Notes under the pieces: generated by a model
The model's input: the letters and a program-made list of their open reading frames with translations, nothing else
What the model was told of the DNA's origin: nothing
The model's database searches: none
Source of the DNA: an uncultured bacterium
GTDB taxonomy: Bacteria > Patescibacteriota > Patescibacteriia > Patescibacteriales > UBA12465
Direction of reading: 5' to 3'
Length of the DNA: 64,000 nt
Assembly: GCA_938003925.1 (NCBI GenBank)
Contig: CALKWQ010000023.1
Coordinates: 243,799 to 307,798, forward strand
In this document: one piece after another, positions 597 to 19,846 of the stretch
How positions within the stretch are numbered: the first letter of the stretch is position 1
Layout of the letters: every line of letters begins with the position of its first letter
Translations under genes and position numbers: made by a program

Positions 597-610
597 TAAC
601 TTTTCTTTTT

Positions 611-1636: not shown

Positions 1637-1665
1637 TATTCTTGGTGTTATTATCAATTATATAT

Positions 1666-1700
1666 AGCCGCCTTTAAATGGGGCGGCTTTATAGTTTTTT
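1666..1700 (+). terminator. rho-independent terminator candidate
   Basis: Stem agccgcc (1666-1672) / ggcggct (1682-1688) followed by a T-rich run. Confidence 0.55.
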
Positions 1701-1817
1701 GAGCTATTTTTAAGACACTTTTTAGCTTTCACATTTTTGGGGAAATATGCTAAAATGGAGATAATGCCCGGAACAGATATCTGCGCTTTCTAATTTTAGT
1801 TTTTTCTTCGTTGTCTC

Positions 1818-3374: not shown

Positions 3375-3376
3375 AT

Positions 3377-3811: not shown

Positions 3812-3816
3812 TTTTT

Positions 3817-4500: not shown

Positions 4501-4509
4501 TATGACCGT

Positions 4510-6399: not shown

Positions 6400-6409
6400 T
6401 TAAAATCAT

Positions 6410-7027
6410 ATGGATAATCGTAAAAAACTAGGTATCTTTATCATCATTATCGGTTTGCTCATTATCGCCGGTATCATCTATTTTATTTTTATTCGAACAG
6501 ATGACGGCAATGATGTTCCGACAGTGCCGACAGCCACGACCACAGTGCAGTTACCCAGTGAGCCAGATACTAGCAGTACGACACCGAGTGATAAGCCTCG
6601 CAATTATCAGCAATATGACATTAGCCAAGAGGCAGAACACGAGATTAATGCTACTGATGTGGCTAAGTTGGCAGCTGCTTTTGCTGAGCGTCTAGGATCT
6701 TTTTCCAACCAGTCTAACTATCGTAATTTTGAAGACTTAAATATTTTTATGACTGCCTCCATGCGTTCTTGGGCGGTTGATTACGTGGCGAAAATGCGCC
6801 TGGACAATCCCTATGATGGTAATTATTACGGTATTACTACCCAGGCTGTAAATACTGAGGTTAAGACCTTTGATGATAAGGCGGGCAAGGCGCAGGTGAT
6901 GGTTAATACCCAGCGCCGAGAGGTAAAAACTGACGGTGGGGAAAATAACTTCGCCCAGAATTTGCGCCTCGATTTTGTTAAACAAGACGGTCAATGGCTG
7001 GTAGATGGCGCTTATTGGGAAAAATAA
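6410..7027 (+). CDS. membrane-anchored hypothetical protein (205 aa)
   Basis: N-terminal TM helix (LGIFIIIIGLLIIAGIIYFIFI), a Thr/Pro linker, then a globular domain. It is the last gene of the T4SS-like run. Confidence 0.55.
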   Translation: MDNRKKLGIFIIIIGLLIIAGIIYFIFIRTDDGNDVPTVPTATTTVQLPSEPDTSSTTPSDKPRNYQQYDISQEAEHEINATDVAKLAAAFAERLGSFSNQSNYRNFEDLNIFMTASMRSWAVDYVAKMRLDNPYDGNYYGITTQAVNTEVKTFDDKAGKAQVMVNTQRREVKTDGGENNFAQNLRLDFVKQDGQWLVDGAYWEK

Positions 7028-7030
7028 TTT

Positions 7031-8377
7031 ATGGCTTTAAAAAGGATTTATACTTGTGGCCACTGCGACGCCCAGTTTCCTAAGTGGAGTGGGCGTTGTT
7101 TAGAGTGTGGCGCCTGGGGTACACTGGCGGAAAGCATCACTGACGCGCAGAGCGAAAAAAAAGCCGAGGCTAAGCAGATGGGGGGAGCGACAGTGGTGGA
7201 TTTACGAACTCTAAAAAGCGGTCCCGAGGTGCGAATCCATAGCGGCTGGGAAGAAATTGACAGGGTGTTAGGGGGCGGGCTCCTGCCTGGATCTTTGTTA
7301 CTATTGAGCGGTGAACCAGGTATTGGTAAAAGCACTCTAGCCGCTCAATTAGCCAATGCTTTAAGCCAGGCAGGTGAAGTTTTGTATGTTAGCGGCGAGG
7401 AGTCAGCTACTCAAGTTAAGTCACGTTTAGAAAGATTATCTTGTGATTTGAGTCGATTGCGCTTCATCGGCGAAACCAGTGTAGAAAAGATTAGCGGGGC
7501 AGCCTTAAAATTAAAACCAACCTTAATGGTGGTTGATTCTATCCAAACCGTCTATTCCTCACTGATTCCTTCTGAGGCTGGCAGTCTAAGCCAGATCAGA
7601 GCGGTGGCGGTTAAATTTCTAGAAATTGCCAAAGAGCAAGGCATTACCGTTCTACTCATTGGCCATATCACCAAAGACGGTCAGATTGCCGGACCTAAAT
7701 CTTTGGAGCATATTGTAGATACGGTCTTGTCCCTAGAGAGTGAGCCAGGCAGTAATTATTGTCTATTGCGGGCCAGTAAAAATCGTTTTGGTTCAGTCAA
7801 CGAGTTGGGCGTCTTGGAGATGACCGGACAAGGCTTCGTAGAGGCTAAAGACCCAAGCTCTGTCTTCTTGGGAGCAGGCGCGAGCGCTATTGCTGGCTCG
7901 GTCATCGGTTGTGTTTTAGAAGGTAGCCGCCCCTTTCTGGTTAACATTCAGGCTTTAGTAACTAAAACTGTGTTTGGCTATCCTCAGCGCAAGGCCAGCG
8001 GTTTAGATTTAAATCGTTTACAGGTGTTGAGCGCTGTTATCGCTAAACGCAGCAAGATTAACCTGGTAACGCGTGATATTATTTTAAATGTGGTCGGAGG
8101 CCTAAAAATTAATGACCCCGCTTTAGATTTGGCAGTTTGTGCAGCCATGATTTCTTCTTATTTGAATAAACCTTTACCTGCCGGCATGGTTATTATCGGT
8201 GAAATTGGTCTAGGAGCTGAACTGCGCCCAGTATTTCGTTTAGAGCAACGCCTTAAAGAAGCTGAGAAGTTGGGCTTCAAGAGCGCCCTGATACCAGCGG
8301 GGGCAGAGTATAAGTCGGGCAAGTTAAAACTGATTAAAATTAGTGGTTTAAGTGAATTGGTAGAAATATTAGGCTAA
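7031..8377 (+). CDS. radA: DNA repair protein RadA/Sms
   Basis: N-terminal zinc ribbon CGHCDAQFPKWSGRCLECGAWG, Walker A GEPGIGKST, the KNRFG motif and a Lon-like C-terminal domain. Confidence 0.95.
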   Translation: MALKRIYTCGHCDAQFPKWSGRCLECGAWGTLAESITDAQSEKKAEAKQMGGATVVDLRTLKSGPEVRIHSGWEEIDRVLGGGLLPGSLLLLSGEPGIGKSTLAAQLANALSQAGEVLYVSGEESATQVKSRLERLSCDLSRLRFIGETSVEKISGAALKLKPTLMVVDSIQTVYSSLIPSEAGSLSQIRAVAVKFLEIAKEQGITVLLIGHITKDGQIAGPKSLEHIVDTVLSLESEPGSNYCLLRASKNRFGSVNELGVLEMTGQGFVEAKDPSSVFLGAGASAIAGSVIGCVLEGSRPFLVNIQALVTKTVFGYPQRKASGLDLNRLQVLSAVIAKRSKINLVTRDIILNVVGGLKINDPALDLAVCAAMISSYLNKPLPAGMVIIGEIGLGAELRPVFRLEQRLKEAEKLGFKSALIPAGAEYKSGKLKLIKISGLSELVEILG

Positions 8378-8412
8378 TATTAAAATATTAATTATTGTTA
8401 GGCCTTTAGCTA

Positions 8413-9152: not shown

Positions 9153-11219
9153 CTACTCCAGGTGAGCCTCCGGCTCTAGTTCTGAGCCGAGGTGTTGCTT
9201 AAGGGCTGGATAATTGCTTAATTCTGGGTCACTTTTGATTAATTCGCTGGCCGCAATCTGAGCTTTTTTAATTAATTCATAGTCAAAAAGTGAAGCTATC
9301 CGCAGTTCGGGAAAACCGCTCTGCACTAAGCCGTATAAATCACCAGCACCGCGTAATTTTAAGTCCATTTTAGCGAGCGAGAGTCCGTCATGGTATTTAC
9401 CTAAAGCTTGTAGGCGCTCAGCTGCTTTAGGGTTCTGCTGGTCTCGACTGGTTATAAGTAGGCAATATGACTGTTGTTTGCCGCGACCGACGCGACCACG
9501 GAATTGGTGGAGCTGGGCCAAGCCAAAACGCTCTGCTCCTTCAATCAACATCACCGAGGCATTAGGTATATCTACGCCGACTTCCACTACGGCGGTGGCG
9601 ACTAAAATATTAGTCTTACCAGCGGCAAAAGCGCTCATAGCTTTTTCTTTGTCAATGCTTTTGAGGCGGCCATGAATCAGATCCAGTTTTAATTCCGGGA
9701 ACACTTCTTGTTGCAGGCGTCTATATTCAGCCGTGGCTGAGCGCACTCCCAACTTGTCCGATTCTGTAACTAGCGGACAAATAATAAAGGCTTGATGGCC
9801 AGCTTTAATTTCTTGGCGAATGAAATCATAAGCTTGTTGGCGCTGTTCTTCGGCTATAATTTTGGTAATAATGGGGAGGCGATTTTTGGGCAGTTCGCGT
9901 ATGAGTGATAAGTCTAAATCTCCGTAAATTGTCAGCGCAAGAGAGCGGGGAATGGGGGTGGCAGTCATAGAGAGAAAATGAGGCCACAACTGTCCGCCGC
10001 TTTGTTGTAGTTTTTGGCGCTGACGAACACCAAAGCGATGCTGTTCGTCTACAATCACTAAAGCTAGACGAGGAATCTCGTAGTCTTGAATTAGGGCTTG
10101 GGTACCGATTAGTATTTCCGCCTCCTGGATGATAGTCGCTCTTCTGGCTGCTTTAGGTTTTGGCAAATTAAAATTAGCTTCAGCTTGGCTGCCACTAAGC
10201 AGCGCCAGTTTTACGTTGAAGGGACTGAGTAGGCGGTTAAGACTCTGGTAATGCTGATAAGCCAATATTTCTGTCGGCGCCATCAAGGCTCCTTGATATT
10301 TATTGATAGCTACATTAAACAAAGCCATAGCCGCGACCACAGTTTTGCCGCTACCGACATCTCCTTCCAACAGGCGCGACATGGGCTCATTTCGGTCAAT
10401 ATCTTGTAGTATTTCCCAGGCTGCCTGCTTTTGTCCGTTAGTAAGGGTGAAAGGAAGATCTTGGACAAAACGCCGGGTGATAACTTCTTGAAATTCAATT
10501 TTTGGAGCCGTTTTATTTTTCAACTGATGCTTTAATGATTGAGAGCGTAACTGTCTTAAAAACAGCTCGCCGAAACCAAGACGCCGACGAGCAGCAAGAG
10601 CTTGCTCTATATCTTCTGGGAAATGTATTTGTTTTACGGCGGTAGCTAGCGGTGTAAGCTGTAAAGAAGATAGGACTTGATTGGGTAACCACTCTTCCAA
10701 GTGGCTGACGGCATCAAGTGCCTGTTTAATCAAAAAACGCAGTTGTTTCTGAGTTAAATCGTTATTTAGATGGTAGACTGGGACTAAACCTTGAGTATGT
10801 ATAAGGCCGCCGCTTACCACCTTTTCATATTGAGGAGAGATGAGACTGAGCTGACCATAGCTCTCGGCTGTTTTGCCAGCCAAAGAAACCTTGTCGCCCG
10901 GCTTAAGATTTTGAGTAATAAAGGGTTGATTAAACCAAACCACCTTAATTATACCGCTATCGTCGCTAATCAGCGCTTCAGTAAGTTGTCTTTTTTGTTT
11001 GGTGCTGCGCTTGTTTTGGATTAATTCAATAGTACCGGTGATACTGACATTTTGTCCTGGTTCAATATCATTGATAGGAGTGGCCCGGCTAAAGTCATCA
11101 TAACGGAAAGGAAAATAGAAAAGCAGGTCTCTCACTGTTTCCAGTCCGAGTTTTTTGAGAGCTTGGGCGGTGCTTTGGCCAACGCGGTTGAGCGCCGATA
11201 AGGGTACGCTTAAAAGCAT
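9153..11219 (-). CDS. recG: ATP-dependent DNA helicase RecG
   Basis: OB-fold wedge N-terminus, helicase motif I GDVGSGKT, motif II DEQHRFG and QFRGRVGRG. 688 aa. Confidence 0.95.
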   Translation of the reverse strand: MLLSVPLSALNRVGQSTAQALKKLGLETVRDLLFYFPFRYDDFSRATPINDIEPGQNVSITGTIELIQNKRSTKQKRQLTEALISDDSGIIKVVWFNQPFITQNLKPGDKVSLAGKTAESYGQLSLISPQYEKVVSGGLIHTQGLVPVYHLNNDLTQKQLRFLIKQALDAVSHLEEWLPNQVLSSLQLTPLATAVKQIHFPEDIEQALAARRRLGFGELFLRQLRSQSLKHQLKNKTAPKIEFQEVITRRFVQDLPFTLTNGQKQAAWEILQDIDRNEPMSRLLEGDVGSGKTVVAAMALFNVAINKYQGALMAPTEILAYQHYQSLNRLLSPFNVKLALLSGSQAEANFNLPKPKAARRATIIQEAEILIGTQALIQDYEIPRLALVIVDEQHRFGVRQRQKLQQSGGQLWPHFLSMTATPIPRSLALTIYGDLDLSLIRELPKNRLPIITKIIAEEQRQQAYDFIRQEIKAGHQAFIICPLVTESDKLGVRSATAEYRRLQQEVFPELKLDLIHGRLKSIDKEKAMSAFAAGKTNILVATAVVEVGVDIPNASVMLIEGAERFGLAQLHQFRGRVGRGKQQSYCLLITSRDQQNPKAAERLQALGKYHDGLSLAKMDLKLRGAGDLYGLVQSGFPELRIASLFDYELIKKAQIAASELIKSDPELSNYPALKQHLGSELEPEAHLE

Positions 11220-11232
11220 AACTTACTGGTAT

Positions 11233-11258
11233 TAAAACAGGCGCCTAGGTGGCGCCTA
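11233..11258 (-). terminator. hairpin plus U-run downstream of tRNA-Arg (minus strand)
   Basis: Stem aggcgcc / ggcgcct followed on the minus strand by tgtttt. Confidence 0.45.
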
Positions 11259-11278
11259 TCATCTCAACTTGATTAATG

Positions 11279-11350
11279 TGCCCTCACCAGGAATCGAACC
11301 TGGATTACAAGATCCGCAATCTTGCGTTCTATCCATTAAACTATGGGGGC
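11279..11350 (-). tRNA. tRNA-Arg, anticodon GCG (folded by eye)
   Basis: Minus strand: acceptor GCCCCCA / TGAGGGC with one C-A mismatch, D arm GTTT..GAAC, anticodon stem CAAGA / TCTTG with loop TTGCGGA, and T arm CCAGG-TTCGATT-CCTGG. CCA is not encoded. Confidence 0.8.
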
Positions 11351-11382
11351 GCTAAGCAGAATCATACGATAGGCGAATTATA

Positions 11383-11907
11383 CTATAGCTTCAATAATTT
11401 CGTCAACTCCTCAGATAAGGGCGGAGAAATACGCTCTAAATCCTCGTTTAAATAGCGTACCAGATAGTTACGGACGGTTAAGGGGTCTTGTCGGCGCAAA
11501 GGTATGGTTAGGCGGGGCAGCATTTTGTTCTTAAATTCTAAGTAGAGATTTTTGACGCTCTGGCGTGGTTTGTAGAGGACACAAAAATTATTAATTTCGT
11601 CGTAATCGTAAAAGCGGCGACCTATACTAATACCCTCGGGACTAAGTTTGATTAAAACTGTTTGTGGTTCTTGACTGTCATGAATAATCATGATGGCTAC
11701 AGACATGAGGATGATGAGGGCAAATAAGAAATTAGATTCAGCTCCCAAAAATACCGGCCGCCAACCAGAGATGGTAAAGAAGGATAAGAATAGGCAGATA
11801 AAGACAAAAATGGCAGCTAATATATACCAGCGGGGGCCACGATCAGGCTTCTTGTATTCTGGCACTTGCCATTGAATGAAGTTGTTAGTACTGTTTGTTG
11901 GCGTCAT
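11383..11907 (-). CDS. membrane protein, two TM helices plus a C-terminal soluble domain
   Basis: The first ATG (MTPTNS) is at 11907; the listed ORF starts 12 nt earlier at a TTG. A TGgTATAAT element lies upstream on the minus strand. Confidence 0.55.
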   Translation of the reverse strand: MTPTNSTNNFIQWQVPEYKKPDRGPRWYILAAIFVFICLFLSFFTISGWRPVFLGAESNFLFALIILMSVAIMIIHDSQEPQTVLIKLSPEGISIGRRFYDYDEINNFCVLYKPRQSVKNLYLEFKNKMLPRLTIPLRRQDPLTVRNYLVRYLNEDLERISPPLSEELTKLLKL

Positions 11908-11978
11908 ATAGTTTGACAAGCAATGAGAGATTTTATATAGTGATTATACCATAAAATTTAAAAGAGAAGAATAATCAG

Positions 11979-12067
11979 GGAGAGGTGGCTGAGCGGCTGA
12001 AAGCGGCAGGTTGCTAACCTGTTATACGTGTAACAGCGTATCCGGGGTTCGAATCCCCGCCTCTCCG
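11979..12067 (+). tRNA. tRNA-Ser, anticodon GCT (long variable arm)
   Basis: Acceptor GGAGAGG / CCTCTCC, anticodon loop TTGCTAA, long variable arm, and T arm CGGGG-TTCGAAT-CCCCG. A hairpin terminator follows at about 12072-12108. Confidence 0.9.
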
Positions 12068-12246
12068 CAGTTGTAAAAAATAAGGCTAAAGGCCTTATTT
12101 TTTAATATCTTTTTAGTTCGAACATAAATAGGGAGAGCGGGACGGTGGTTTTTTAAATCGGCTATTTTTTGTTAATACTACATCAATATTACAAATTTCG
12201 AACATTTTAGTTTGAGTATAAATATAGCTGGTGGTACAATATTAGT

Positions 12247-12435
12247 ATGCAATTTACCGAAAAGCAGCTAAATAAATTTAGGAATTTATACAAAGAAACA
12301 TTCGGAGATGATTTATCGGATGGGGAAGTGTTAAGACAAGCCACAGCATTAGTTACTTTGGTTAAATTAACATACAAACCAATCACTAAGGGTGATTTTG
12401 AGAGAATTAAAAATTTAAAAACAAGTTGCACATAA
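12247..12435 (+). CDS. small hypothetical protein (62 aa), islet 1
   Basis: TGgTACAAT extended -10 (12232-12240) ends 6 nt before the ATG, so the mRNA may be leaderless. AT-rich islet context. Confidence 0.35.
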   Translation: MQFTEKQLNKFRNLYKETFGDDLSDGEVLRQATALVTLVKLTYKPITKGDFERIKNLKTSCT

Positions 12436-12500
12436 AAATAATCGCATTTCTAAAGATATATTTGGGTTATTATAAGTGATAGATAATTAATATTAACTAT

Positions 12501-12740
12501 ATGAAAATTGAGGATTATTTAAAAATTACTGTGCCAAAAATTGGTAATGCGGCTCTCGATTTAATACGCGACGCGCGCTTTAAAGCAATCGAAGAACTTT
12601 TAATAGAAAAAAATGTGGCGACACGAGAGGAAATAGATGCTGAAGTTGATAAACAATTAGGTGAAATTGCGAAGCAAATTTCAGAAATGCCGCCTATGCC
12701 TTCTAAAAATGAACAATCTAAAGAAACAAACAGAGATTAA
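12501..12740 (+). CDS. small hypothetical protein (79 aa), islet 1
   Basis: ORF only; helical and charged. It overlaps the start region of the next ORF. Confidence 0.4.
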   Translation: MKIEDYLKITVPKIGNAALDLIRDARFKAIEELLIEKNVATREEIDAEVDKQLGEIAKQISEMPPMPSKNEQSKETNRD

Positions 12741-13590
12741 GACCTCACTGCCGTATTGCTTGTATAAAATAGATACGAGGTTTTTTAAATTTGGCGATCG
12801 CTTTAATTCAAAAATTCGTTTTACAAAAGAGGATACTACTCCGAATCGCAGAACCCAAGATTCTAAAAACATGGAAGCAATTAGAGATAGATGGGGCATA
12901 GAAGCACACTCAGATGTACTTATTCTTACAGATAAACTTTTTGAAGAGTCTGTCGGGGCTGAAGAATTTGCGCTAGATCTATTAAATAATTTCATTAAAC
13001 TTTATCGTTGTTATGATGGTCAGGCGGTACATCTAGTTCCTCTTATAAAAGAAGATTTATTTGGCTTCTCAGTAGTTAGTCCAGACGGATCAGGAGTTCT
13101 TAGTTTGGCGCTGGGCGGTGGTATACAGATATATGACCCAATGTGGACGCAAAAAATTAGTGATAGTATAGAAAAAGCTCTGGATAAAAAAGAGGTTATA
13201 CCGTTGTGGCACGAACTCCTTCTCAATGCTGAGCAATATCTATATCAAGGAGATTATCGCCATTCCATATTGGAAAGCGTTATTGCACTTGAAGTCGTAT
13301 TATCTAGTTTTATACGAAAAATGTGTGTGTCTAAAGGCATCTCAGCTAAAGAAGCTAATAATTTTATAAAAGATGTTGGTCTCACGGGAAATATTAGAGT
13401 GTCTCTAAAACTCTTGCTCGATCCAACTATTATTTTAGGTGAAGATATGCTTGAAAAATGCAAGGCTGGTATTACTATAAGAAACGGCATTGTTCATAAA
13501 GGGGAGAATTCTGTCGGAAGTAAAGAAGCGAATGATACCATTATTAACGGAAGGAAATTGATTAATATAATGTTGCCATTTATAAATTAA
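12709..13590 (+). CDS. HEPN-like protein (Rx4H motif), candidate RNase toxin or abortive-infection effector
   Basis: C-terminal ITIRNGIVHKG contains R-N-x3-H, the Rx4-6H HEPN signature, in a helical C-terminal region. The start is ambiguous: ATG at 12709 or 12871, and the listed GTG at 12661 is unlikely. Confidence 0.5.
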   Translation: MNNLKKQTEIKTSLPYCLYKIDTRFFKFGDRFNSKIRFTKEDTTPNRRTQDSKNMEAIRDRWGIEAHSDVLILTDKLFEESVGAEEFALDLLNNFIKLYRCYDGQAVHLVPLIKEDLFGFSVVSPDGSGVLSLALGGGIQIYDPMWTQKISDSIEKALDKKEVIPLWHELLLNAEQYLYQGDYRHSILESVIALEVVLSSFIRKMCVSKGISAKEANNFIKDVGLTGNIRVSLKLLLDPTIILGEDMLEKCKAGITIRNGIVHKGENSVGSKEANDTIINGRKLINIMLPFIN

Positions 13591-13621
13591 AATTTAATAT
13601 TAGCCATTTTATTATAAAAAA

Positions 13622-13650
13622 GTTCGAATAGCGTCCCTCACTCTCCGCGG
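13622..13650 (+). repeat. degenerate copy of the tRNA-Ser 3' end (pseudo-att site 1)
   Basis: gttcgaatagcgtccctcactctccgcgg compared with the tRNA 3' end gttcgaatccccgcctctccgca. Like the tRNA, it is followed by a hairpin plus T-run (13657-13684). Confidence 0.55.
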
Positions 13651-13800
13651 CAAGTCAAAAACAAGGTTTAGCCTTGTTTTTTGGTGTCAAAAAATTCCAA
13701 AGTGGAGCAGAGAGTAAGTAAAAATATTTTTTAAAAATCACATAATTTATCTAATATTGATATATAAAATAGTGGTTCCAGGTAAATTATTTTAATTGTA

Positions 13801-13829
13801 TTGACAAATAAATAATAATGCCATACAAT
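13801..13829 (+). promoter_or_regulatory. sigma70-type promoter of the dinJ-yafQ pair
   Basis: TTGACA (13801-13806), a 17-nt spacer, then TACAAT (13824-13829). Confidence 0.6.
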
Positions 13830-13849
13830 ATGACTATAATAAAAAACAT

Positions 13850-14134
13850 ATGATTACTAAAAATAACGAACAAATTCAAATTCGTATCGACGCTGAAACT
13901 AAAAGAGAAACAAAAAAAATTCTTGATAGTTTGGGTATTGATATGAGTTCGGCTATAAAATTATTTTTTCGTCAGATAATAAATGCCAAAAATTTACCCT
14001 TTGAATTAAGGGGTGAAAATGGCCTTACTTTACGTAATGCTGAATTGTTAAGAGAATCCATTGTCAGTGCTAGTAATAGCACTAAGCTTTTTAAGGATGG
14101 GTCGGCCCTCATCAAAGACACTTTAAGGGATTAA
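13850..14134 (+). CDS. dinJ: type II antitoxin, RelB/DinJ family
   Basis: IQIRIDAETKRETKKILDSLGIDMSSAIKLFFRQIINAKNLPFEL matches the DinJ ribbon-helix-helix pattern. The toxin gene starts 3 nt downstream. Confidence 0.75.
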   Translation: MITKNNEQIQIRIDAETKRETKKILDSLGIDMSSAIKLFFRQIINAKNLPFELRGENGLTLRNAELLRESIVSASNSTKLFKDGSALIKDTLRD

Positions 14135-14137
14135 TCT

Positions 14138-14410
14138 ATGTTTTTGCTGAAATTTTCTAGTCGATTTAAGAAAGACTTAAAGTTTTATAAATATGACAAA
14201 GTTTTTTTAGTTGAGTTAGAAAAAGTTTTAGATATTTTAGCAAAAGGCAAAGATTTGCCAGATAAAAATCTTAATCATCCGCTTATTGGTGAATTTAAGG
14301 GTTGTTTTGAATGTCATATTAAACCCGATATTCTTCTTATTTATAAAATAGAAAAATCAGAGTTGACTGTTCTATTGCTTAGAGTTGGCTCACATTCAAA
14401 TCTTTTTTAA
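14138..14410 (+). CDS. yafQ: type II toxin, YafQ/RelE-family mRNA interferase
   Basis: HPLIGEFKGCFECHIKPDILLIYKI....LLLRVGSHSNLF matches the YafQ C-terminal signature (H..L.G....ECHI.PD.LLIY...R.GSHS.LF). Confidence 0.8.
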   Translation: MFLLKFSSRFKKDLKFYKYDKVFLVELEKVLDILAKGKDLPDKNLNHPLIGEFKGCFECHIKPDILLIYKIEKSELTVLLLRVGSHSNLF

Positions 14411-14454
14411 GGGTAATAATGGCGAATTAAGGTTTTTCTATAATACCGTTCCAA

Positions 14455-14475
14455 GTTCGTCCTACCCTCTCCGCA
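14455..14475 (+). repeat. second degenerate copy of the tRNA-Ser 3' end (pseudo-att site 2)
   Basis: gttcgtcctaccctctccgca compared with gttcgaatccccgcctctccgca. A GC-rich remnant and a hairpin terminator lie downstream. Confidence 0.5.
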
Positions 14476-14557
14476 TTAATAATGACCCCCTCCTCGCACT
14501 CGCGCTCCCGCTTCGCGGTTTGCCAATGAATACTCGTGCGGGGTTTCCTGACTATTT

Positions 14558-14590
14558 AAAAAAAAGACTGTTTTTAAAACAGTCTTTTTA
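14558..14590. terminator. bidirectional hairpin terminator
   Basis: aaaaaaaagactgttt ttaa aacagtcttttt is flanked by A- and T-runs and sits between convergent transcription units. Confidence 0.6.
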
Positions 14591-14598
14591 GTTGCTTG

Positions 14599-16041
14599 TT
14601 ATTTTATTGCATCTTTCATAACTTTGTAGATTTGGCTGAATTCTAGTCCAAGTTTTTTCCCGTATGATAGGAAGAAGGCCAAAGCCGCTTGGCTTACCAC
14701 CATGGGGAGACCGTCCATAGTCTGGAGCTTAAGCTTTTTAGCTTGAGAAATTAAAGGCGTATCATCGGAGCGCAAGATAATATCTGCTATTATACATGTT
14801 TTTGACATTTGCGTTAGAAGTTTCTGACTGATTTTTAAGTTTTCTTCTAGACCTTGATCAGTAACAGCTAAAGATGAATAATTTTCCCATTCTCCGGTTG
14901 CACCCTTGATACTAGCATTTACAATCAAATCTAGAGATGAAAAATAGTTTTCTACTTGTCTTTCTTGACAACCGATAGCTTTAGCTTCTCCTGAAAGTTG
15001 ATAAAAATCATTAATTTTTTCTGCTAGAGCTACAGCTTTAGATTCGGTTCGATTGGCGACTATTAAATGGGCTCCGGCTTTAGCTAAGGCGAATGCAATG
15101 GCATTGGCCGTACCACCAGAACCGAGTAATAAAACTTTTTTTTCAGTCATTTGGTTAAGAGAGGGGAAGTTTTCTTGTAGGCCTTGTACAAAACCAGTTC
15201 CATCAGTATTGTAGCCAATAAGGAGTCCTTTGTCGTTTTTAAGGATAAAATTAGCCGCACCGACGTTAGCGGCGCTATCATCTAAGAGATCAAGTAATTC
15301 TATAGCTTCATCTTTAAAGCCAACGCCGAGTCCACCTGCCAAAAAACGGTTATCATCTCGGAAAACTTCCAGTGTCCATTTTAGATTCTCTTTTTCTAGG
15401 TCATCTGTTCGGGGGACTAGAACTAAACTTTTTGCCGCAACATTAAAATGTGTGAAAGCGCTATTCCACAATAATGGCGTTCTAGCTGGGTAATCATGGT
15501 TAATTAGAGTAACCATCATTCCTTGATTGCTAAAACTTTTAGGATTGACAGGCGGTAGCTTAGCGATTTGCCATAAGCCATTTTGAGCCAAATTTTCTAG
15601 TTGTTTTTTGGGGACAGTCATAGATTTTGAATCATTATAATTTAGACGGATAATTGTGACATGAAAATCATCGGTAAGCTCATCTAGGCTGAGGTTATAA
15701 ATCAGTCCTAGATGGAATTTAAGAACATTTGAATCGTATACATCAGGACTTGATCCTTCAAAATCACTTCTATTCAGCTCGCCAATTTTTTTGCTATAGA
15801 TGTGTTCAATCGAAGCGATTATTTCTTCTGATTCATCAAATTGTGGAGCGATTCCTAATCGATCAGAACCTAAATGTTCGATTTTTTTTAAAGTTATTAC
15901 TTGTTTTTCACAATAACCACGATAAGCGGCGCATAGCCTCACTCCTGGGCGGAAAAAAGTAGTGACCCGTCCTTTAATAATTAGTGGCCAATATATTTTA
16001 CGAATGGCCATTTCATTAGGATTTAAGATGAGTTTTTTCAT
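14599..16041 (-). CDS. shikimate/quinate dehydrogenase (AroE)-like protein with an unrecognised roughly 160-aa N-terminal extension
   Basis: The C-terminal two thirds show the AroE layout: substrate domain ...LLWNSAFTHF..., GYNTDGTGF, and Rossmann LLLGSGGTANAIAFALAKAGAHLIVANRT. The N-terminal 160 aa may be ASCH/PUA-like (weak). Confidence 0.65.
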   Translation of the reverse strand: MKKLILNPNEMAIRKIYWPLIIKGRVTTFFRPGVRLCAAYRGYCEKQVITLKKIEHLGSDRLGIAPQFDESEEIIASIEHIYSKKIGELNRSDFEGSSPDVYDSNVLKFHLGLIYNLSLDELTDDFHVTIIRLNYNDSKSMTVPKKQLENLAQNGLWQIAKLPPVNPKSFSNQGMMVTLINHDYPARTPLLWNSAFTHFNVAAKSLVLVPRTDDLEKENLKWTLEVFRDDNRFLAGGLGVGFKDEAIELLDLLDDSAANVGAANFILKNDKGLLIGYNTDGTGFVQGLQENFPSLNQMTEKKVLLLGSGGTANAIAFALAKAGAHLIVANRTESKAVALAEKINDFYQLSGEAKAIGCQERQVENYFSSLDLIVNASIKGATGEWENYSSLAVTDQGLEENLKISQKLLTQMSKTCIIADIILRSDDTPLISQAKKLKLQTMDGLPMVVSQAALAFFLSYGKKLGLEFSQIYKVMKDAIK

Positions 16042-16276
16042 GATTAGTTTTTATTTTTTAATGAACCTTATTTTTTGAAACTATTTTTTATTATATACCC
16101 CCTAGGGGTGTATGTCAATAGTAAAAAGGTATTCTTTCTCTAAAAAATTTATCTCTATTTTGTTATAATTTAGATATGATAATAAAATAATGAATCATTA
16201 TAAATAATAGTTTTTTGTGATAAGCTATTTTATCTCTGCTAGCTTACATTTTTAATAATCATAGTAATACAAAACA

Positions 16277-16783
16277 ATGTGGAAAAATAAAGAAGGCTTT
16301 ACTTTAATAGAATTACTTGTAGTCATCGCTATCATTGCTCTTATTGCAGCGCTCTCAATAATTGCAATTAACCGTTCTCGCATGCTAGCACGCGATGCCA
16401 AACGAAAGGCTGATTTAAAAAATATAGTTGTTGCTTTAGAAATGTATTATCAAGAATATGGTGTTTATCCTCCCGCAGGATCTTGCGCATACGGTACGAA
16501 TTGTTACGTCTACAGTACTTCTGGAGCTAGCTGGCTCGCCCCTCTAAAACCTTATATATCACCACCAATCGATCCAATCAATAATCAGGCGGGGCCATGG
16601 ATAAGCGGGCGCTATTCATATTCATACGGAAACGTCACCGCTAATGGCCAAGAATACGATTTAGTTGGGCAACTGGAGAATACCAACGATCCCGATCGCT
16701 GCGCTATTAAAAAATATCGATTCAACTTAATTAAAAATACATGGTGCGGCAGTTATAGTGGACAAATGTATGCGCCACAGTAA
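16277..16783 (+). CDS. type IV pilin-like protein (prepilin N-terminal methylation motif)
   Basis: MWKNKEG|FTLIELLVVIAIIALIAA class III signal, with Glu at +5. Confidence 0.8.
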   Translation: MWKNKEGFTLIELLVVIAIIALIAALSIIAINRSRMLARDAKRKADLKNIVVALEMYYQEYGVYPPAGSCAYGTNCYVYSTSGASWLAPLKPYISPPIDPINNQAGPWISGRYSYSYGNVTANGQEYDLVGQLENTNDPDRCAIKKYRFNLIKNTWCGSYSGQMYAPQ

Positions 16784-16949
16784 AAATTTAGCGACCTTAA
16801 CATGAAAACTATCTCTAGAGATATTTTTTAAAGATTAGAAACTTCGTGCGAGTTGCCAGTGGTTGTGAGGAGGGTCTATTTGATTAAACTTTAGTTCCTA
16901 AATAAAATTAATTTTTAAGTTTTAATATAATAAAAGCGATTATCCTAAT

Positions 16950-17117
16950 ATGCTAAATATAATTATATATTGGATTCCAAAAATTCTAGCCATAGCACTG
17001 GGAGTCTTTTTTATTGTGTTTGGCGAATTTGACGACAGTCCCGGGCTGCAAGGGCTCGGACTCATTATAATCATGGCTATATTTTTTATAGTGATTAGGA
17101 GAAAAAAAGAAAAATAA
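16950..17117 (+). CDS. unlisted small two-TM protein (55 aa)
   Basis: My translation: MLNIIIYWIPKILAIALGVFFIVFGEFDDSPGLQGLGLIIIMAIFFIVIRRKKEK*. It is below the ORF-track cut-off. Two clean hydrophobic helices and a basic tail. Confidence 0.35.
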   Translation: MLNIIIYWIPKILAIALGVFFIVFGEFDDSPGLQGLGLIIIMAIFFIVIRRKKEK

Positions 17118-17196
17118 CTTTTTTAACTTGTCAAAATAAATTTAAATGTGTTATTTTTATAGATATGAGTTTTGTTAAATAAGAAAAGTAAAATTA

Positions 17197-17709
17197 ATGT
17201 CGATGTTTAGATTCCAGGCAGCTAAATCAAATAATAATTCCGGTTTTACCCTAATTGAGCTTTTGGTGGTGATTGCTATTATCGGTTTATTATCCACTAT
17301 TTCTATCGTGGCTCTCAACAGCACTCGCTCTCGAGCCCGTGATGCCAAGAGATTGGGTGACATGTCTCAAATAGCAAAAGCCCTAGATATGTATTATAAC
17401 GATAATGGCGCTTATCCTTCTTGCGGTGGTAGTAGTGGCGATAAAAATGGTGGCTGGTATACCTGTTTACAGCCAGCGCTGTCACCGTATATGAGTAAAT
17501 TACCCCATGATCCTTTAGAAAAAAGTTCCGGTTATTATTATACTGTTGCTTGGGCTAACAATAAGCAAGGAGCTCAATTAATATTTTTTTTAGAAAATAC
17601 TAATCCCAATCTAAGTAGTGCTAGGTTTAGCTGGTATGCGGGTGACTATGGTTATGCCTATGTGCACGAAGTGGGGCAATATAATCGCATCACTAGCTAT
17701 GGTTATTAA
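17197..17709 (+). CDS. type IV pilin-like protein
   Basis: ...NNNSG|FTLIELLVVIAIIGLLSTISIVALNSTRSRARDAKR is a typical T4 pilin N-terminus. Confidence 0.8.
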   Translation: MSMFRFQAAKSNNNSGFTLIELLVVIAIIGLLSTISIVALNSTRSRARDAKRLGDMSQIAKALDMYYNDNGAYPSCGGSSGDKNGGWYTCLQPALSPYMSKLPHDPLEKSSGYYYTVAWANNKQGAQLIFFLENTNPNLSSARFSWYAGDYGYAYVHEVGQYNRITSYGY

Positions 17710-19846
17710 CAAAAGAACTATTTTAGAGAAATTGTTGAAGGAGTACTATCCGTTATTATTTGTTTTTCTAGTGGGCCTGATTTTAATCACTGGCCCTTTT
17801 ATTTTTAGTAATAATTTGGAAGGTTTTGATGCTGCTGGCCAATATGCCAATGCTTATTATATCCGTTCCGCCTTTTGGCCTTGGCCAGGTGGATGGAATG
17901 CCATGCTTTTAACCGGTTTTCCTCAAGGCTTATTTTATCCTCCTTTTTTTCATTGGTTAAGCGCTGCTCTTAGCTTTGCTTTGCCCTTGCAATTTGCCTA
18001 TAAGTTAATTTTGAGTTTGGCAGTAATTGCTTTTCCTTTAGTATATTTCATTTTTGCGAAAAAACTTTTACTTAAATCGGTATTAGCCAATTCGGCTTTA
18101 TTGTTGGCTGGCATTTTTTATTATTTTGATTTAGGCCTAAATGATAATCTTTTCTGTGATTTATACTTTGGCATGTCTTCCCACCTTTTCTCTTTGACTT
18201 TGTTTATTGTGTATCTATATTTTTTGTGGTCTTTCTACCAAAACAAAGGACGCTGGCAATGGGCGAGCTTATTATTAGCTTTAGTGATTGTTACTCATGC
18301 CATTACTGGCTTGGTGGCTATTTTGTTCGGTGTGCTTTTTCTGATACTGAGCTGGCGTCAGCGCGATACCTTGGTAAAAGCCATTCAACACTTAGTGTTA
18401 GCAGCTCTGTTGTCTTTGTGGTGGTGGCTGCCGATGTTGCTTAATATTTCTTACATGTCTGGCAGCGACATCAGTTCTACGGCCGCTCCTGTTTTGATTT
18501 TGGTAATGCCTTTTATTTTGGCTATTAGTTTGGCGACATTAATGACAAAATCAAAGCACAGTGCTTTTATTCAAACTATAGCCGTCTTTAACTTTTTGAT
18601 TATAGCAGCCTACTTATTGGGCCGAGTTTTTGTGATTCATAATTTTCCTATTCATGTTAGCCGTTTCTTAGTGTACCCCTTATTATTGTCGCCTCTGCCT
18701 TTATTGAGCCTTATTGCTAAGTTCAAGTATGATTGGCAGAAGATAAATTTAACTCTAGTTTTTGCCTTCAGTTTCTATTTTTTCTTTTTCAGAATTATTC
18801 CTGTGGGCCCATTTGATACTTTTCTATTAGATAATGTGCATAATTACTACAAGCAAGGACGCGTTATCGTCACCGGGGGCAGTCGTTATCTAGATGATCG
18901 TTTTCACACCACCAGAATGAAGTTAGCAATGGAACATAATTTACCTGTTTCTGAGGGCTTGTTTGTAGAGTCCTCAGCTAATGGCTGGTTTATTATGTCT
19001 ATGATGCAGAGTTGGGAGAGCACGGTTCCTACTTTTGTTTGGGCTTATAAAAATTTGAAGAATGTGGCTGATTTGCGCTGGGGTGCTGACATTATGGCAG
19101 TTAACTATGAATACCGTTTAAACGACCTGCGACCCTCTCGGGAGGAAGAAGATTTATTGCAGGCACAAGCTAAAATAGCCTCTTCTACAGAGTCAACGAC
19201 TGCGACGGTAGAAGGCGAGAGAACTGCCGCAGAGAAAGAGGAAGCTGTTTTATCCTTTAAAAACGAGCGCGTTCGTTTGCTGGACAATGAACGCACCACC
19301 TCTCTATTGGCTGGCACTAATAACCCCTTTTATTATCAGTCTTTTTATCAAGTGGGTAATGCGGGTTTAGCCGAGGCTCTAGCGGTGAGACCTGTAACTA
19401 TTGATAGTAATTGGCAGGCAAGCACGCGACGCTGGTGGTCTAGTGATTGGCTGAAGCTAGATAATAACGAGGGTGGCTACACTAAGCCCGTTTTAGTTTA
19501 TCGGCAAAATGTAGCTGCCTGGGAGTTGTCGCCGACTAAGATTGGTTTACCTTTGTCGTTGTCTCCACAAAAAATGGATACTTTCGTTGTTGATGCGACC
19601 GTTCTTGAGTCACCGGCTCCTATTTATGTCAAGGTAGCTTATTTCCCCTTTTGGCGTGCTTTTGATGAGACTGGGAATAGATTGGAGATACATAGAGCCT
19701 CGCCTAATTTTATGTTGGTTTATGGGCAAGGAAAAATAACTTTTAAATACGTGGAACCTAATTATTATTTCGCTGGCTTCATAGTTTCCGGGCTAGCTCT
19801 ATTGTTCTGCTTAGCAGGCTTGATTTGGTTGCGTCCGAAGAGTTAA
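17699..19846 (+). CDS. large polytopic membrane protein (about 12 TM) with a C-terminal extracytoplasmic domain; GT-C-like glycosyltransferase candidate
   Basis: ATG at 17699 (MVINKRT...) overlaps the pilin stop by 11 nt. The listed start at 17618 lies inside the pilin gene. Many TM helices, an EGFDAAG first loop, a roughly 300-aa soluble region and a final TM. Confidence 0.55.
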   Translation: MVINKRTILEKLLKEYYPLLFVFLVGLILITGPFIFSNNLEGFDAAGQYANAYYIRSAFWPWPGGWNAMLLTGFPQGLFYPPFFHWLSAALSFALPLQFAYKLILSLAVIAFPLVYFIFAKKLLLKSVLANSALLLAGIFYYFDLGLNDNLFCDLYFGMSSHLFSLTLFIVYLYFLWSFYQNKGRWQWASLLLALVIVTHAITGLVAILFGVLFLILSWRQRDTLVKAIQHLVLAALLSLWWWLPMLLNISYMSGSDISSTAAPVLILVMPFILAISLATLMTKSKHSAFIQTIAVFNFLIIAAYLLGRVFVIHNFPIHVSRFLVYPLLLSPLPLLSLIAKFKYDWQKINLTLVFAFSFYFFFFRIIPVGPFDTFLLDNVHNYYKQGRVIVTGGSRYLDDRFHTTRMKLAMEHNLPVSEGLFVESSANGWFIMSMMQSWESTVPTFVWAYKNLKNVADLRWGADIMAVNYEYRLNDLRPSREEEDLLQAQAKIASSTESTTATVEGERTAAEKEEAVLSFKNERVRLLDNERTTSLLAGTNNPFYYQSFYQVGNAGLAEALAVRPVTIDSNWQASTRRWWSSDWLKLDNNEGGYTKPVLVYRQNVAAWELSPTKIGLPLSLSPQKMDTFVVDATVLESPAPIYVKVAYFPFWRAFDETGNRLEIHRASPNFMLVYGQGKITFKYVEPNYYFAGFIVSGLALLFCLAGLIWLRPKS

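Follow-up and report, generated by a model that had tools for sequence, protein, structure and literature searches.

An islet of two AT-rich units, 12069-13648 (unit 1) and 13649-14474 (unit 2), stands behind a tRNA-Ser(GCT) gene in the window, that is, in the whole 64-kb stretch of DNA analysed here. It is interpreted, with a probability of roughly 0.72, as an array of two mobile cassettes that lack a recombinase of their own and were inserted at the 3' end of the tRNA gene through the action of a large serine recombinase (LSR). This reading is carried by the architecture of the islet and its sites, by the distribution and exchange of its units among related loci, and by the position of LSR genes in complete islands of relatives.

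Organisation of the islet

Foreign DNA begins at 12069, the junction with the tRNA lying at 12068/12069, and a tRNA-3'-end-like site closes both units alike. Each unit is composed, in the same order, of a left arm (a hairpin and two GTTCCAAAG-like boxes), a promoter-like site, cargo and a 30-nt right-end site. The features, in window positions, are as follows.

11979-12068, + strand: tRNA-Ser(GCT), intact (ARAGORN; Rfam tRNA 58.5 bits)
12047-12068, + strand: host-type (attB-like) left half-site, the last 22 nt of tRNA-Ser, GTTCGAATCCCCGCCTCTCCGC
12069-12246, + strand: left arm of unit 1, containing a direct repeat and alignable to the arm of unit 2 and to those in L018, L053 and L042
12075-12103: terminator hairpin of the unit 1 arm
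12115-12123 and 12209-12217: boxes AGTTCGAAC and AGTTTGAGT of the unit 1 arm, 94 nt apart
12212-12240: promoter-like site of the unit 1 arm
12247-12435, + strand: 62-aa ORF, no family match
12501-12740, + strand: 79-aa ORF, conserved small partner of the HEPN-like protein, overlapping the next gene by 32 nt
12709-13590, + strand: 293-aa protein, predicted C-terminal HEPN-like domain and beta-rich N-terminal half
13619-13648, + strand: element-type (P-type) site 1, hereafter site 2, AAAGTTCGAATAGCGTCCCTCACTCTCCGC; right end of unit 1 and junction with unit 2
13649-13849, + strand: left arm of unit 2, conserved ahead of different cargo
13657-13681: terminator hairpin of the unit 2 arm
13694-13702 and 13774-13782: boxes ATTCCAAAG and GGTTCCAGG of the unit 2 arm
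13801-13829: promoter-like TTGACA-17-TACAAT of the unit 2 arm
13850-14134, + strand: RelB/DinJ-family antitoxin, 94 aa (Pfam RelB 4.1e-13), 95.7% identical to the L018 copy
14138-14410, + strand: YafQ (RelE/ParE-fold) toxin, 90 aa (Pfam YafQ_toxin 3.9e-28)
14445-14474, + strand: element-type (P-type) site 2, hereafter site 3, ACCGTTCCAAGTTCGTCCTACCCTCTCCGC; right end of unit 2 and junction with the non-island flank
14475-14598, no strand: non-island flank, followed by the convergent aroE-like gene
14561-14589: bidirectional terminator hairpin in the distal flank, ahead of the aroE-like gene
14599-16041, - strand: aroE-like gene, convergent

The islet has a GC content of 32.4%, against 42.0% for the whole window (sd 2.7%, windows of the same size), and is the lowest-GC stretch of its size in the 64 kb. 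The GC3 z-scores of all five islet ORFs range from -2.8 to -4.5 relative to 49 background ORFs, in agreement with the earlier sequence-only reading of this DNA, which had described the two segments as more AT-rich than their surroundings. The low-GC zone runs past the islet, to about 18 kb. Within the distal flank, a GC-rich stretch (approximately 14484-14545) occurs with the same sequence in contig L001 from another sample, and a homologue search with it found none besides this identical contig. That no integrase is left also agrees with the present analysis: no LSR homologue was found in the 64-kb window, and no recombinase domain in any islet ORF by Pfam.

A hairpin with a T-run had been described behind each copy of the tRNA end. 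Such structures do lie directly 3' of the tRNA (12075-12103) and of site 2 (13657-13681), whereas after site 3 the hairpin stands off, 87 nt downstream, and is probably a terminator shared with the convergent aroE-like gene.

The arm of unit 2 is kept at 75-94% in L018, L063, L042, L053, L058, L052, L029, L057 and L061 while the cargo differs, and the arm architecture of both units recurs in 9 other loci with other cargo. To our knowledge, the GTTCCAAAG boxes of the arms have no counterpart in LSR systems. Because both units share a left arm and a right-end site with cassettes of other cargo, they may represent mobile cassettes that are non-autonomous, and not larger elements that have eroded. 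The description of the islet as stacked integrated units is thus retained, while the term "remnants", previously applied to them, may understate what they are.

The tRNA-like sites and their motif family

The pattern GTTCG-N(4-24)-CTCTCCGC has just three matches in the window (12047, 13622 and 14455), each of them on the + strand, with 0.01 expected by chance. This count bears out the proposal that the tRNA-Ser 3' end recurs twice in degenerate form, as do Markov shuffles of the window, of which 0 of 300 gave a match with 8 or fewer mismatches to a 30-nt consensus, ACCGTTCCAAGTGCGTCCCACCCTCTCCGC; by these two measures the similarity of the repeats is significant. The third copy is real, but its register is better placed at 14445/14448 (GTTCCAAG) than at the originally proposed start of 14455. 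In that register sites 2 and 3 align ungapped over 42 nt with 71% identity.

Both window sites belong to a 30-nt motif family defined by this consensus, which is common to 41 distinct sites from other genomes. Site 3 matches the consensus of the metagenome sites at 28 of 30 positions (2 mismatches) and site 2 at 23 of 30 (7 mismatches), ungapped and with the 5-nt-longer spacing, the score of site 2 being the more independent since the search pattern was partly designed from site 3. The more diverged of the two is the tRNA-proximal one, while several other arrays trend in the opposite direction.

The family is widespread in Patescibacteria. The motif is present on 44 JGI metagenome contigs, and 0 matches were obtained from the viral contigs searched. 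Where a same-strand tRNA lies upstream it is always tRNA-Ser (anticodons cga, gct, tga and gga), and no opposite-strand copies of the motif occur among the family loci. The flanks on either side of the 30 nt are unrelated between loci, and inspection of the consensus revealed no internal dyad. The motif is often found in arrays of 2-5 copies between co-oriented, mostly single-gene cassettes. Related loci hold 46 such cassettes, mostly of 0.5-1.1 kb, in which 45 of 47 ORFs are on the same strand and the cargo is highly varied (40 clusters from the 47 ORFs), including GNAT, glyoxalase, toxin-antitoxin and NUDIX-type genes. The left neighbour of cassettes that are 99.4-99.8% identical may be tRNA-Ser or a P-type site (L057/L042, L041/L030).

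Classical tDNA islands driven by tyrosine integrases would provide another origin for such repeats, in that the copy of the tRNA end carried by each element displaces the native end and the displaced copies decay randomly. A regenerated and then decayed tRNA 3' end was the mechanism originally put forward for this islet, and the AT-rich composition, the position at a tRNA 3' end and the direct tRNA-like repeats as bounds are all compatible with it. In addition, L016 and L018 each repeat the last 18-19 nt of the tRNA almost exactly approximately 190 nt downstream, in a displaced copy that looks classical. Both window copies, however, fit the consensus of the 41 sites from other genomes and share their spacing, which is always 5 bases longer than that of the tRNA end, and random decay is unlikely because independent sites would not converge on one consensus and one spacing. 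Furthermore, homology to relatives breaks right at the 3' terminus of the tRNA and leaves no part of it to be regenerated, no tyrosine integrase was found among the sampled island ORFs scanned against Pfam, and the recombinases that adjoin tRNA-Ser are LSRs. The original mechanism is therefore not upheld, and tyrosine-integrase islands are considered quite improbable here.

Exchange and absence of units in relatives

Positions 13641-14474 are 93.8% identical to L018, against 73.9% for the DNA from RecG to tRNA-Ser. Unit 2 is homologous to L018 from 13641, inside site 2, to 14474, and the homology breaks exactly in the two sites; unit 2 has been horizontally exchanged. Unit 1 is missing from L018, where unit 2 is present, and both units are missing from L020-L023. 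Homology with L020-L023 ends at 12068, while with L016 and L018 it continues to 12080. The view that two stacked, horizontally acquired units lie at the tRNA-Ser 3' end is well supported by these breaks. The site that precedes unit 2 in L018 is of the host type, with tRNA-like spacing, which a simple model does not predict. The island-free L022 is 99.4% identical to the island-bearing L020 over 12.9 kb, with the break at the tRNA 3' end, and its tRNA-Ser is followed directly by non-island genes. L020 and L022 diverge beyond about 60 nt of flank, and L022 is accordingly not a clean empty-site allele.

The same comparisons make it very improbable that the islet is vertically inherited native intergenic DNA, with terminator-linked or regulatory motifs as its repeats and ordinary accessory genes between them. 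Hairpin terminators do accompany the sites and the low GC does extend beyond the islet; yet unit 2 stands at 94% identity to L018 where the flanks reach 74%, units are absent from L018 (unit 1) and from L020-L023 (both), and the cargo differs at almost every locus.

RecA-type homologous recombination after DNA uptake, with the 30-nt sites and the tRNA serving as mere short homology anchors, would be a route that involves no site-specific recombination. The bounds of the exchange fall inside sequence that donor and recipient have in common (the inner 15 nt, either of the site or of the tRNA end), the window has no recombinase, and a type IV secretion-like or uptake-like gene cluster is conserved near RecG in relatives. 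Such anchors would nevertheless be only 15-30 nt long, no longer than the minimum usually required for homologous recombination to be efficient. The existence of the motif, its one-strand position behind tRNA-Ser, its attP-like geometry and the placement of an LSR exactly at the tRNA junction in complete islands would also be left unexplained, and we regard this route as unlikely.

Recombinase linkage and geometry of the sites

Islands of a similar kind next to integrases, which the sequence-only reading had suggested looking for, are found at tRNA-Ser in L020, L024 and L050. These complete islands, of 5-8 kb, have an LSR gene against tRNA-Ser and the motif at the far end, and two of the three contain a rolling-circle Rep-like gene. 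In L020 a 537-aa ORF (Resolvase 4.5e-22, Recombinase 1.6e-16, Zn_ribbon_recom 5e-12) reads into tRNA-Ser, and LSR homologues adjoin tRNA-Ser in L024, where the motif follows after 7.8 kb, and in L050, where it follows after 5.5 kb; L024 also encodes a REP_ORF2-G2P protein. Further LSR genes are present in L027, L038, L045 and L048. The 30-nt site probably serves these serine-recombinase-borne islands.

The site mimics the T-loop and acceptor 3' strand of the tRNA, with a difference in spacing: the tRNA consists of GTTCGAAT, 6 nt and CTCTCCGC, and the motif of GTTCCAAG, 11 nt and CTCTCCGC. The inner 14 nt of the motif are in register with the tRNA end (12 of 14 match), while its outer 8-nt T-loop-like box lies 5 nt further from the junction than in the tRNA. 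In attB, the zinc-ribbon-domain motif is shifted 5 bp towards the centre relative to attP (Rutherford et al., 2013; PMC3783163). By analogy, the offset of the motif would be the difference expected between serine-integrase attP and attB half-sites, in the left half only, and the fixed 5 extra bases together with the shared consensus point to an element-borne, attP-type half-site. No clear mirror image of the left half was seen in the right arms, read by eye against the consensus, so that support for the LSR site geometry extends to one half only. The common core of L020 attL, L020 attR and L022 is at most 6 nt (CGCCAA).

An LSR, acting in trans or since lost, would have recombined the element site with the 3' end of tRNA-Ser, and crossover within a few bases of the discriminator/CCA position would leave the tRNA gene intact. 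Repeated insertion on the tRNA side would push earlier units outward, unit 2 thus arriving first and unit 1 second, while the left arm of each unit would provide a terminator hairpin for whatever stands upstream. Recombination of attP with attL lies outside the repertoire of canonical serine integrases, and their known model does not foresee that an occupied site is entered serially. Stacking of units beside the tRNA therefore calls for a relaxed enzyme, such as Ccr in the staphylococcal cassette chromosome (SCC), or for some other route.

Cargo of the units

The three ORFs of unit 1 had been taken for orphans, a description that does not hold for any of them. The 62-aa ORF has a 44%-identical homologue in L048, adjoining a large serine recombinase gene. 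The 79-aa ORF shows 63% identity to the ORF in the same position in Roizmanbacteria locus L002, and in L068 and L069 an equivalent ORF of 77-81 aa precedes a homologue of the 293-aa protein. For the 293-aa protein itself 69 homologues were found, with a called length of about 290 aa, and R258-N259-x3-H263 (the Rx4-6H motif) is invariant across 42 sequences.

The AlphaFold2 model of the 293-aa protein has a mean pLDDT of 84, and its top Foldseek matches are the HEPN proteins 1ufb, 2q00, 2hsb (1.00) and 1wol, with an overall probability of 0.97-1.00, a target-normalised TM of 0.60-0.72 and E-values of only 0.01-0.3. A Pfam scan of the protein matched no HEPN model. The C-terminal fold is predicted from the model to be all-alpha and HEPN-like, and the initial recognition of an Rx4H HEPN-like protein is sustained by both motif and fold. 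In Roizmanbacteria the module of 79-aa and 293-aa proteins belongs to an island at tRNA-Asn that carries an LSR. In L068 it immediately follows a tRNA 3' end, and in L069 its neighbours are methyltransferase, helicase and NucS-like genes. The module probably works as an RNase system, either toxin-antitoxin-like or of the abortive-infection kind, in which the small protein neutralises the larger one.

The cargo of unit 2 had been recognised as a DinJ/YafQ pair with its own promoter, and both assignments stand. The antitoxin gene is immediately upstream of the toxin gene, with a 3-nt gap, in one operon with the promoter-like site ahead. The toxin additionally matches a PHROG RelE-like toxin (1.9e-26) and is 97.8% identical to the L018 copy. 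RelB/YafQ is a type II toxin-antitoxin pair, probably acting as an addiction or defence module.

Relation to known systems

Tandem islands at tRNA genes (Islander/TIGER-type) and the tycheposons of Prochlorococcus (bioRxiv 10.1101/2020.12.28.424599) resemble the islet in inserting 3' of a tRNA, in moving older elements outward by repeated insertion, in carrying defence and niche cargo, and in containing degenerate remnants with partial tRNA-like repeats scattered inside. Tyrosine integrases drive the great majority of them, and their bounds are genuine partial copies of the tRNA, an LSR being present in a minority of the integrase-carrying elements of the tycheposon study (bioRxiv 10.1101/2020.12.28.424599). 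Here, in contrast, the distal site is a mimic and not a copy of the tRNA, its offset fixed at 5 nt, the associated recombinase is an LSR, and most units of the family are single-gene and of 0.5-1.1 kb. The site geometry resembles that of the Listeria innocua prophage integrase (A118-family; PMC3783163), with an inner half-site in register and the outer box of the element 5 bp further out. Unlike the Listeria sites, only the left half displays this geometry, the right halves being without convincing symmetry, and the elements are islands and cassettes rather than phages, as the 0 viral-contig matches indicate.

With regard to architecture, a further parallel is found in SCC. Ccr belongs to the LSR family and inserts SCC at the 3' end of rlmH without inactivating the gene. 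Composite SCC islands are described as stacked SCC elements that include recombinase-less pseudo-SCC. The islet likewise consists of tandem units between short direct site repeats, without a recombinase, with the 3' end of a housekeeping gene kept. The likeness considered here is one of architecture; the target is a tRNA gene rather than rlmH, the units are about tenfold smaller and the host belongs to the Patescibacteria.

CIMEs of streptococci are cis-mobilisable, att-flanked elements without integration genes, derived from ICEs with tyrosine integrases. The units studied here are similarly short and recombinase-less, lying between attachment-type sites beside the target of a related autonomous element. 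Unlike in CIMEs, a conserved arm and site are combined with many cargos, which suggests a dedicated family of non-autonomous cassettes.

In integrons, too, the cassettes are co-oriented and mostly carry a single gene (in the present family 45 of 47 ORFs lie on the same strand), each being closed by a conserved recombination-type site, and the array of the window, with its two cassette units, is comparable. The cargo of the present family is very diverse, and its GNAT, glyoxalase, toxin-antitoxin and NUDIX-type genes resemble integron cassette content. Integrons differ in their IntI-type tyrosine recombinase, which was not found in the window or in the scanned proteins of related loci, where the recombinases found were of the serine type. 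In addition, the site is without an attC-like internal inverted repeat on inspection, the array is anchored on a tRNA gene, and the window cassettes, at least, carry their own promoter-like site and terminator.

Implications

It is conceivable, although still doubtful, that Patescibacteria hold an integron-like gene-capture platform built on an LSR, in which cassettes are inserted and excised behind any tRNA-Ser. The LSR would often come from a small LSR-plus-Rep island and act in trans, and the cassettes would be non-autonomous and mostly single-gene, with a left arm that is conserved and, on the right, a 30-nt site mimicking the tRNA. If this were true, co-oriented cassette arrays would be where these tiny genomes chiefly keep their accessory and defence genes, and the islet of the window would be one such two-cassette array.

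Organisation and composition of the islet

Five plus-strand ORFs lie between an intact tRNA-Ser and a convergent aroE-like gene, and are divided by tRNA-3'-end-like sites into unit 1 (12069-13648) and unit 2 (13649-14474).

Features of the islet behind tRNA-Ser (window coordinates)
11979-12068, plus strand: tRNA-Ser(GCT), intact (ARAGORN, Rfam); its end, 12047-12068, is site 1
12075-12103: hairpin and T-run after the tRNA
12115-12123 and 12209-12217: GTTCCAAAG-like boxes, unit 1 arm
12247-12435, plus strand: 62-aa ORF
12501-12740, plus strand: 79-aa ORF, overlapping the 293-aa ORF
12709-13590, plus strand: 293-aa ORF, start fixed by homologues
13619-13648: site 2
13657-13681: hairpin and T-run after site 2
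13694-13702 and 13774-13782: GTTCCAAAG-like boxes, unit 2 arm
13801-13829: near-consensus promoter-like site, TTGACA-17-TACAAT
13850-14134, plus strand: RelB/DinJ antitoxin (Pfam 4e-13)
14138-14410, plus strand: YafQ toxin (Pfam 4e-28)
14445-14474: site 3
14561-14589: hairpin beyond site 3, 87 nt away
14599-16041, minus strand: aroE-like gene, convergent

The pattern GTTCG-N(4-24)-CTCTCCGC has three matches in 64 kb, all on the plus strand (12047, 13622 and 14455), against 0.01 expected, which bears out the sequence-only reading that tRNA-3'-end-like sites recur behind tRNA-Ser. The third copy is real, but its register is better taken from 14448 (GTTCCAAG) than from 14455, and sites 2 and 3 then align without gaps over 42 nt. 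A hairpin with T-run had been described after each copy; this holds for the tRNA and site 2, but not for site 3, where the hairpin is offset and probably also serves the aroE-like gene. The DinJ/YafQ assignment and its consensus-like promoter were confirmed, as was the AT-richness of the islet: GC content is 32.4% vs 42.0% for the window, the lowest of any stretch of that size within it, and GC3 z-scores of all five ORFs range from -2.8 to -4.5. Past the islet (14599-18000) GC stays low across the aroE-like gene (GC3 z = -2.65) and the region of a pilin-like gene, as far as ~18 kb. Apart from the tRNAs, an Rfam search with a permissive threshold detected no RNA family in the islet. A GC-rich stretch at 14484-14545 folds no better than expected (z = -2.2), its sole homologue being an identical copy in one other contig (L001), and searches for exact copies of the 178-aa and the 293-aa window protein gave no match.

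A conserved 30-nt site family

The distal sites in the window and in the related loci L018, L020 and L010 share one form, unlike the tRNA end. The tRNA end (host-type) reads GTTCGAAT + 6 nt + CTCTCCGC and the distal motif (element-type, or P-type) GTTCCAAG + 11 nt + CTCTCCGC, with 12 of the inner 14 nt matching. Scanning JGI metagenomes with ACCGTTCCMAGNNNGTCCYACCCTYTYCGC returned 44 contigs, from which the family consensus is ACCGTTCCAAGTGCGTCCCACCCTCTCCGC; the flanks on both sides are unrelated between loci. Where a same-strand tRNA is present upstream it is always tRNA-Ser, with four anticodons represented. With up to 8 mismatches allowed, 2-5 sites are arrayed in many loci; every one lies on the strand of the tRNA, and at that threshold the opposite strand has no motif in any locus. 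Site 3 of the window differs from the consensus at 2 positions and site 2 at 7, and none of the window shuffles reaches 8 mismatches or fewer. The sites are a conserved family and not decayed tRNA ends, so the mechanism of tRNA-end decay previously proposed for them has to be set aside. A viral contig collection held no match for the 30-nt motif or the 293-aa family, and a prophage origin thus finds no support.

Relatives and exchange of discrete units

Relatives were anchored on the upstream RecG (homologues 75-82% identical), and these loci keep the order RecG, tRNA-Arg, 174-aa gene, tRNA-Ser. In one of them, L018, ~190 nt separate tRNA-Ser from a near-exact copy of its end, after which comes a RelB/YafQ unit as in the window; the 79-aa + 293-aa module is missing. 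Identity to L018 is 93.8% for window 13641-14474 (over 849 nt), vs 73.9% for the RecG-to-tRNA DNA, and the homology starts exactly at the CTCTCCGC of site 2 and stops exactly at the ...CCGC of site 3. Because of this excess identity and these breaks, unit 2 is regarded as a discrete, horizontally exchanged unit and, since L018 has unit 2 without the module, unit 1 as a separate insertion between unit 2 and the tRNA. The proposal of two stacked integrated elements is thereby upheld.

A different island of ~4.8 kb occupies the same tRNA in L020, L021 and L023. L022, which is 99.4% identical to L020 over 12.9 kb, lacks the island, and homology between the two breaks at the 3' end of the tRNA. At its distal end the L020 island has the junction ACCGTTCCCAGCGCGTCCCACCCTCTTCGCCA, then ~60 nt resembling the sequence directly after the tRNA in L022, past which the two diverge; because the flanks differ beyond 60 nt, L022 represents an unoccupied state, not a clean deletion allele. 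A genome-collection scan with the aroE-like protein gave only two distant loci, one with tRNA-Asn and no tRNA-Ser (L008) and one with no tRNA at all (L009), and hence no empty-site comparison. In aroE-like-anchored relatives (L010-L015) the same kind of repeats occurs, and the contigs break in the variable region.

Several further observations concern these loci. The last 18-19 nt of tRNA-Ser recur as a near-exact host-type copy ~190 nt downstream in L016 (320-342) and L018 (8946-8968), and the DNA before it is GC-rich and contains GGGATTCGAA, an inverted T-loop-like sequence; the copy resembles a scar left at the tRNA-Ser hotspot by an older insertion of another type. In L010 the counterpart of the small membrane-protein gene at window 16950-17117 flanks the aroE-like gene on the opposite side, from which it follows that this neighbourhood has been rearranged between relatives. 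Four independent contigs of a more distant relative (L012-L015) end ~365 nt past the tRNA-Arg(CCG) adjoining the aroE-like gene, which suggests another strain-variable or repeated, assembly-breaking region there. On the far side of RecG, L016 and L018-L023 carry a conserved cluster of PrgI, TraC-like, TraG/VirB4-like P-loop ATPase and RadA/DnaB_C-like genes; by synteny, window ORFs 611-8377 (~600-8400) probably correspond to this cluster.

Cassette architecture and cargo

Both window units open with a homologous arm, composed of a terminator hairpin and two GTTCCAAAG-like boxes, then a promoter-like site. The unit 2 arm is kept at 75-94% identity in nine other loci, after a site and before different cargo, including a 500-aa protein, a Bro-N protein, a Fic protein (called from reading the sequence, not from a Pfam scan) and another RelB/YafQ pair. 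Conserved ends, variable cargo and the lack of a recombinase together define a non-autonomous cassette family. The boxes, which resemble the outer box of the 30-nt site, also occur ~80-95 nt apart in the arms of L018, L042, L053, L058 and others, and in another arm type the box is inverted (CTTTGGAACG), ~50 nt from the junction. The stretch 12117-12146 (GTTCGAAC...AGGGAGAGCGGGACG) was considered as an inverted site copy and rejected, as it aligns within the conserved left arm and none of the loci has a motif on the reverse strand.

The related loci yielded 46 distinct cassettes, mostly of 0.5-1.1 kb with a single ORF. Their ORFs fall into 40 sequence clusters, and 45 of 47 (at least 80 aa) point in the tRNA direction (binomial p = 1.6e-11). 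Pfam identified ART-PolyVal, NYN, RhuM/Fic, glyoxalase, NTPase_I-T, serine hydrolase, Bro-N, HD, metallo-beta-lactamase fold, SDR, GNAT and NERD among cassette and island proteins. Cassettes 99.4-99.8% identical have as left neighbour either a tRNA-Ser end or a P-type site (L057/L042, L041/L030), homology breaking within the inner 15 nt of the site.

The HEPN module of unit 1

The ORFs of unit 1, previously described as orphans, have relatives: 69 homologues of the 293-aa protein were found, none of them with a Pfam domain, and the 79-aa ORF is conserved upstream of, and overlapping, the larger gene in four contexts (window, L002, L068, L069). R258, N259 and H263 occur in every one of the 42 sequences aligned. 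The AlphaFold2 model (mean pLDDT 84) best matches the small HEPN proteins 1ufb, 2q00, 2hsb and 1wol over ~132 columns, with probabilities of 0.97-1.00 and E-values of only 0.01-0.3; the N-terminal beta-rich half had no structural match. A weak, partial PADLOC match (PDC-S32, E = 0.003) was not used. The HEPN pair directly follows a tRNA 3' end in L068, and stands beside methyltransferase, helicase and NucS-like genes in L069. From these features we infer that the pair is a predicted two-component toxin/neutraliser or abortive-infection module.

Large serine recombinases at tRNA-Ser in related loci

In the L020 island, a 537-aa protein combines Resolvase, Recombinase and zinc-ribbon recombinase domains, the composition of a large serine recombinase (LSR). 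L024 and L050 have homologues in the same position against tRNA-Ser, and there the motif follows after 7.8 kb and 5.5 kb, respectively; further homologues occur in L027, L038, L045 and L048; L024 also encodes a rolling-circle Rep-like protein. One 500-aa cargo gene is found in the LSR-plus-Rep island of L050 and, 98.2% identical, in a site-bounded cassette in L053. No tyrosine integrase was present among the proteins scanned against Pfam from a sample of islands. Roizmanbacteria loci with a 79-aa + 292-aa module are organised in the same way at tRNA-Asn, a serine recombinase gene adjoining the tRNA gene.

The recombinase ORF crosses the junction and reads through the antisense of tRNA-Ser in L020 (7638-9251), L024 and L050, which places the element site inside the 3' end of the recombinase gene, its last ~32 codons being replaced on integration. 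In serine integrases the zinc-ribbon-domain motif lies 5 bp nearer the centre in attB than in attP (Rutherford et al., PMC3783163), and the outer box of the P-type site lies 5 nt further out than that of the tRNA end. By sequence, the left half-sites fit exactly the half-site rule known from phage serine integrases; support is partial, the presumed attP right half showing no convincing mirror symmetry in the three arm types examined. The core common to L020 attL, L020 attR and L022 is at most CGCCAA, which puts crossover at the discriminator/CCA end, so that the tRNA gene is unsplit and needs no regenerating.

Other repeats occur in and around these islands. Perfect 139-nt inverted repeats (L020 4942-5080 and 7240-7378; also L021, L034) enclose ~2.1 kb with a 578-aa ORF and an HTH gene, and this segment, being flipped in L021 and L034, resembles an invertible switch. 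In Roizmanbacteria L002-L004, two extra copies of the 5' 40 nt of tRNA-Asn precede it, flanking a GIY-YIG gene (3030-3480), and 121-nt direct repeats (9768-12204; 92% identical; tRNA-3'-like end GGGGAGCCA) delimit other segments lying downstream of the island with the LSR.

Proposed history of the islet

A family element carrying RelB/YafQ would first have recombined with the 3' end of tRNA-Ser; a second, carrying the 62-aa ORF and the HEPN module, would then have inserted at the tRNA side, leaving site 2 as an internal junction. The enzyme was probably an LSR from a co-resident island, or one since lost. Several points weaken this model. Canonical serine integrases are not known to recombine sites that are already occupied (attL-type); no convincing mirror image is seen in the right half-sites; the repeated GTTCCAAAG-like arm boxes have no place in it; L018 carries a host-type copy to the left of unit 2; and the window site nearer the tRNA is the more diverged (7 vs 2 mismatches).

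Relation to known systems and significance

In tycheposons, too, elements insert serially at tRNA genes, accompanied by degenerate remnants and by repeats of part of the tRNA, and a minority of their integrase-carrying elements carry an LSR (bioRxiv 10.1101/2020.12.28.424599). SCC composite islands resemble the islet in their stacked units without a recombinase, which serine recombinases service there. The novelty lies in the host group, Patescibacteria, and in finding together a target common to tRNA-Ser isoacceptors, a fixed tRNA-mimic site and co-oriented, mostly single-gene cassette arrays.

Patescibacteria have very small genomes, and their gain and loss of accessory genes is little described. 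The 3' end of tRNA-Ser genes with four anticodons is here defined as a base-precise insertion hotspot, marked by a 30-nt sequence and loaded with arrays of small cassettes that carry toxin-antitoxin, nuclease, acetyltransferase and other accessory genes. The finding also provides a setting in which the two-gene HEPN module, not previously characterised, can be tested. Should a serine recombinase service the sites, it would be an unusual member of its class in targeting tRNA genes and in tolerating stacked insertions, and the sites would supply recombinase engineering with compact natural attP/attB pairs built on tRNA mimicry.
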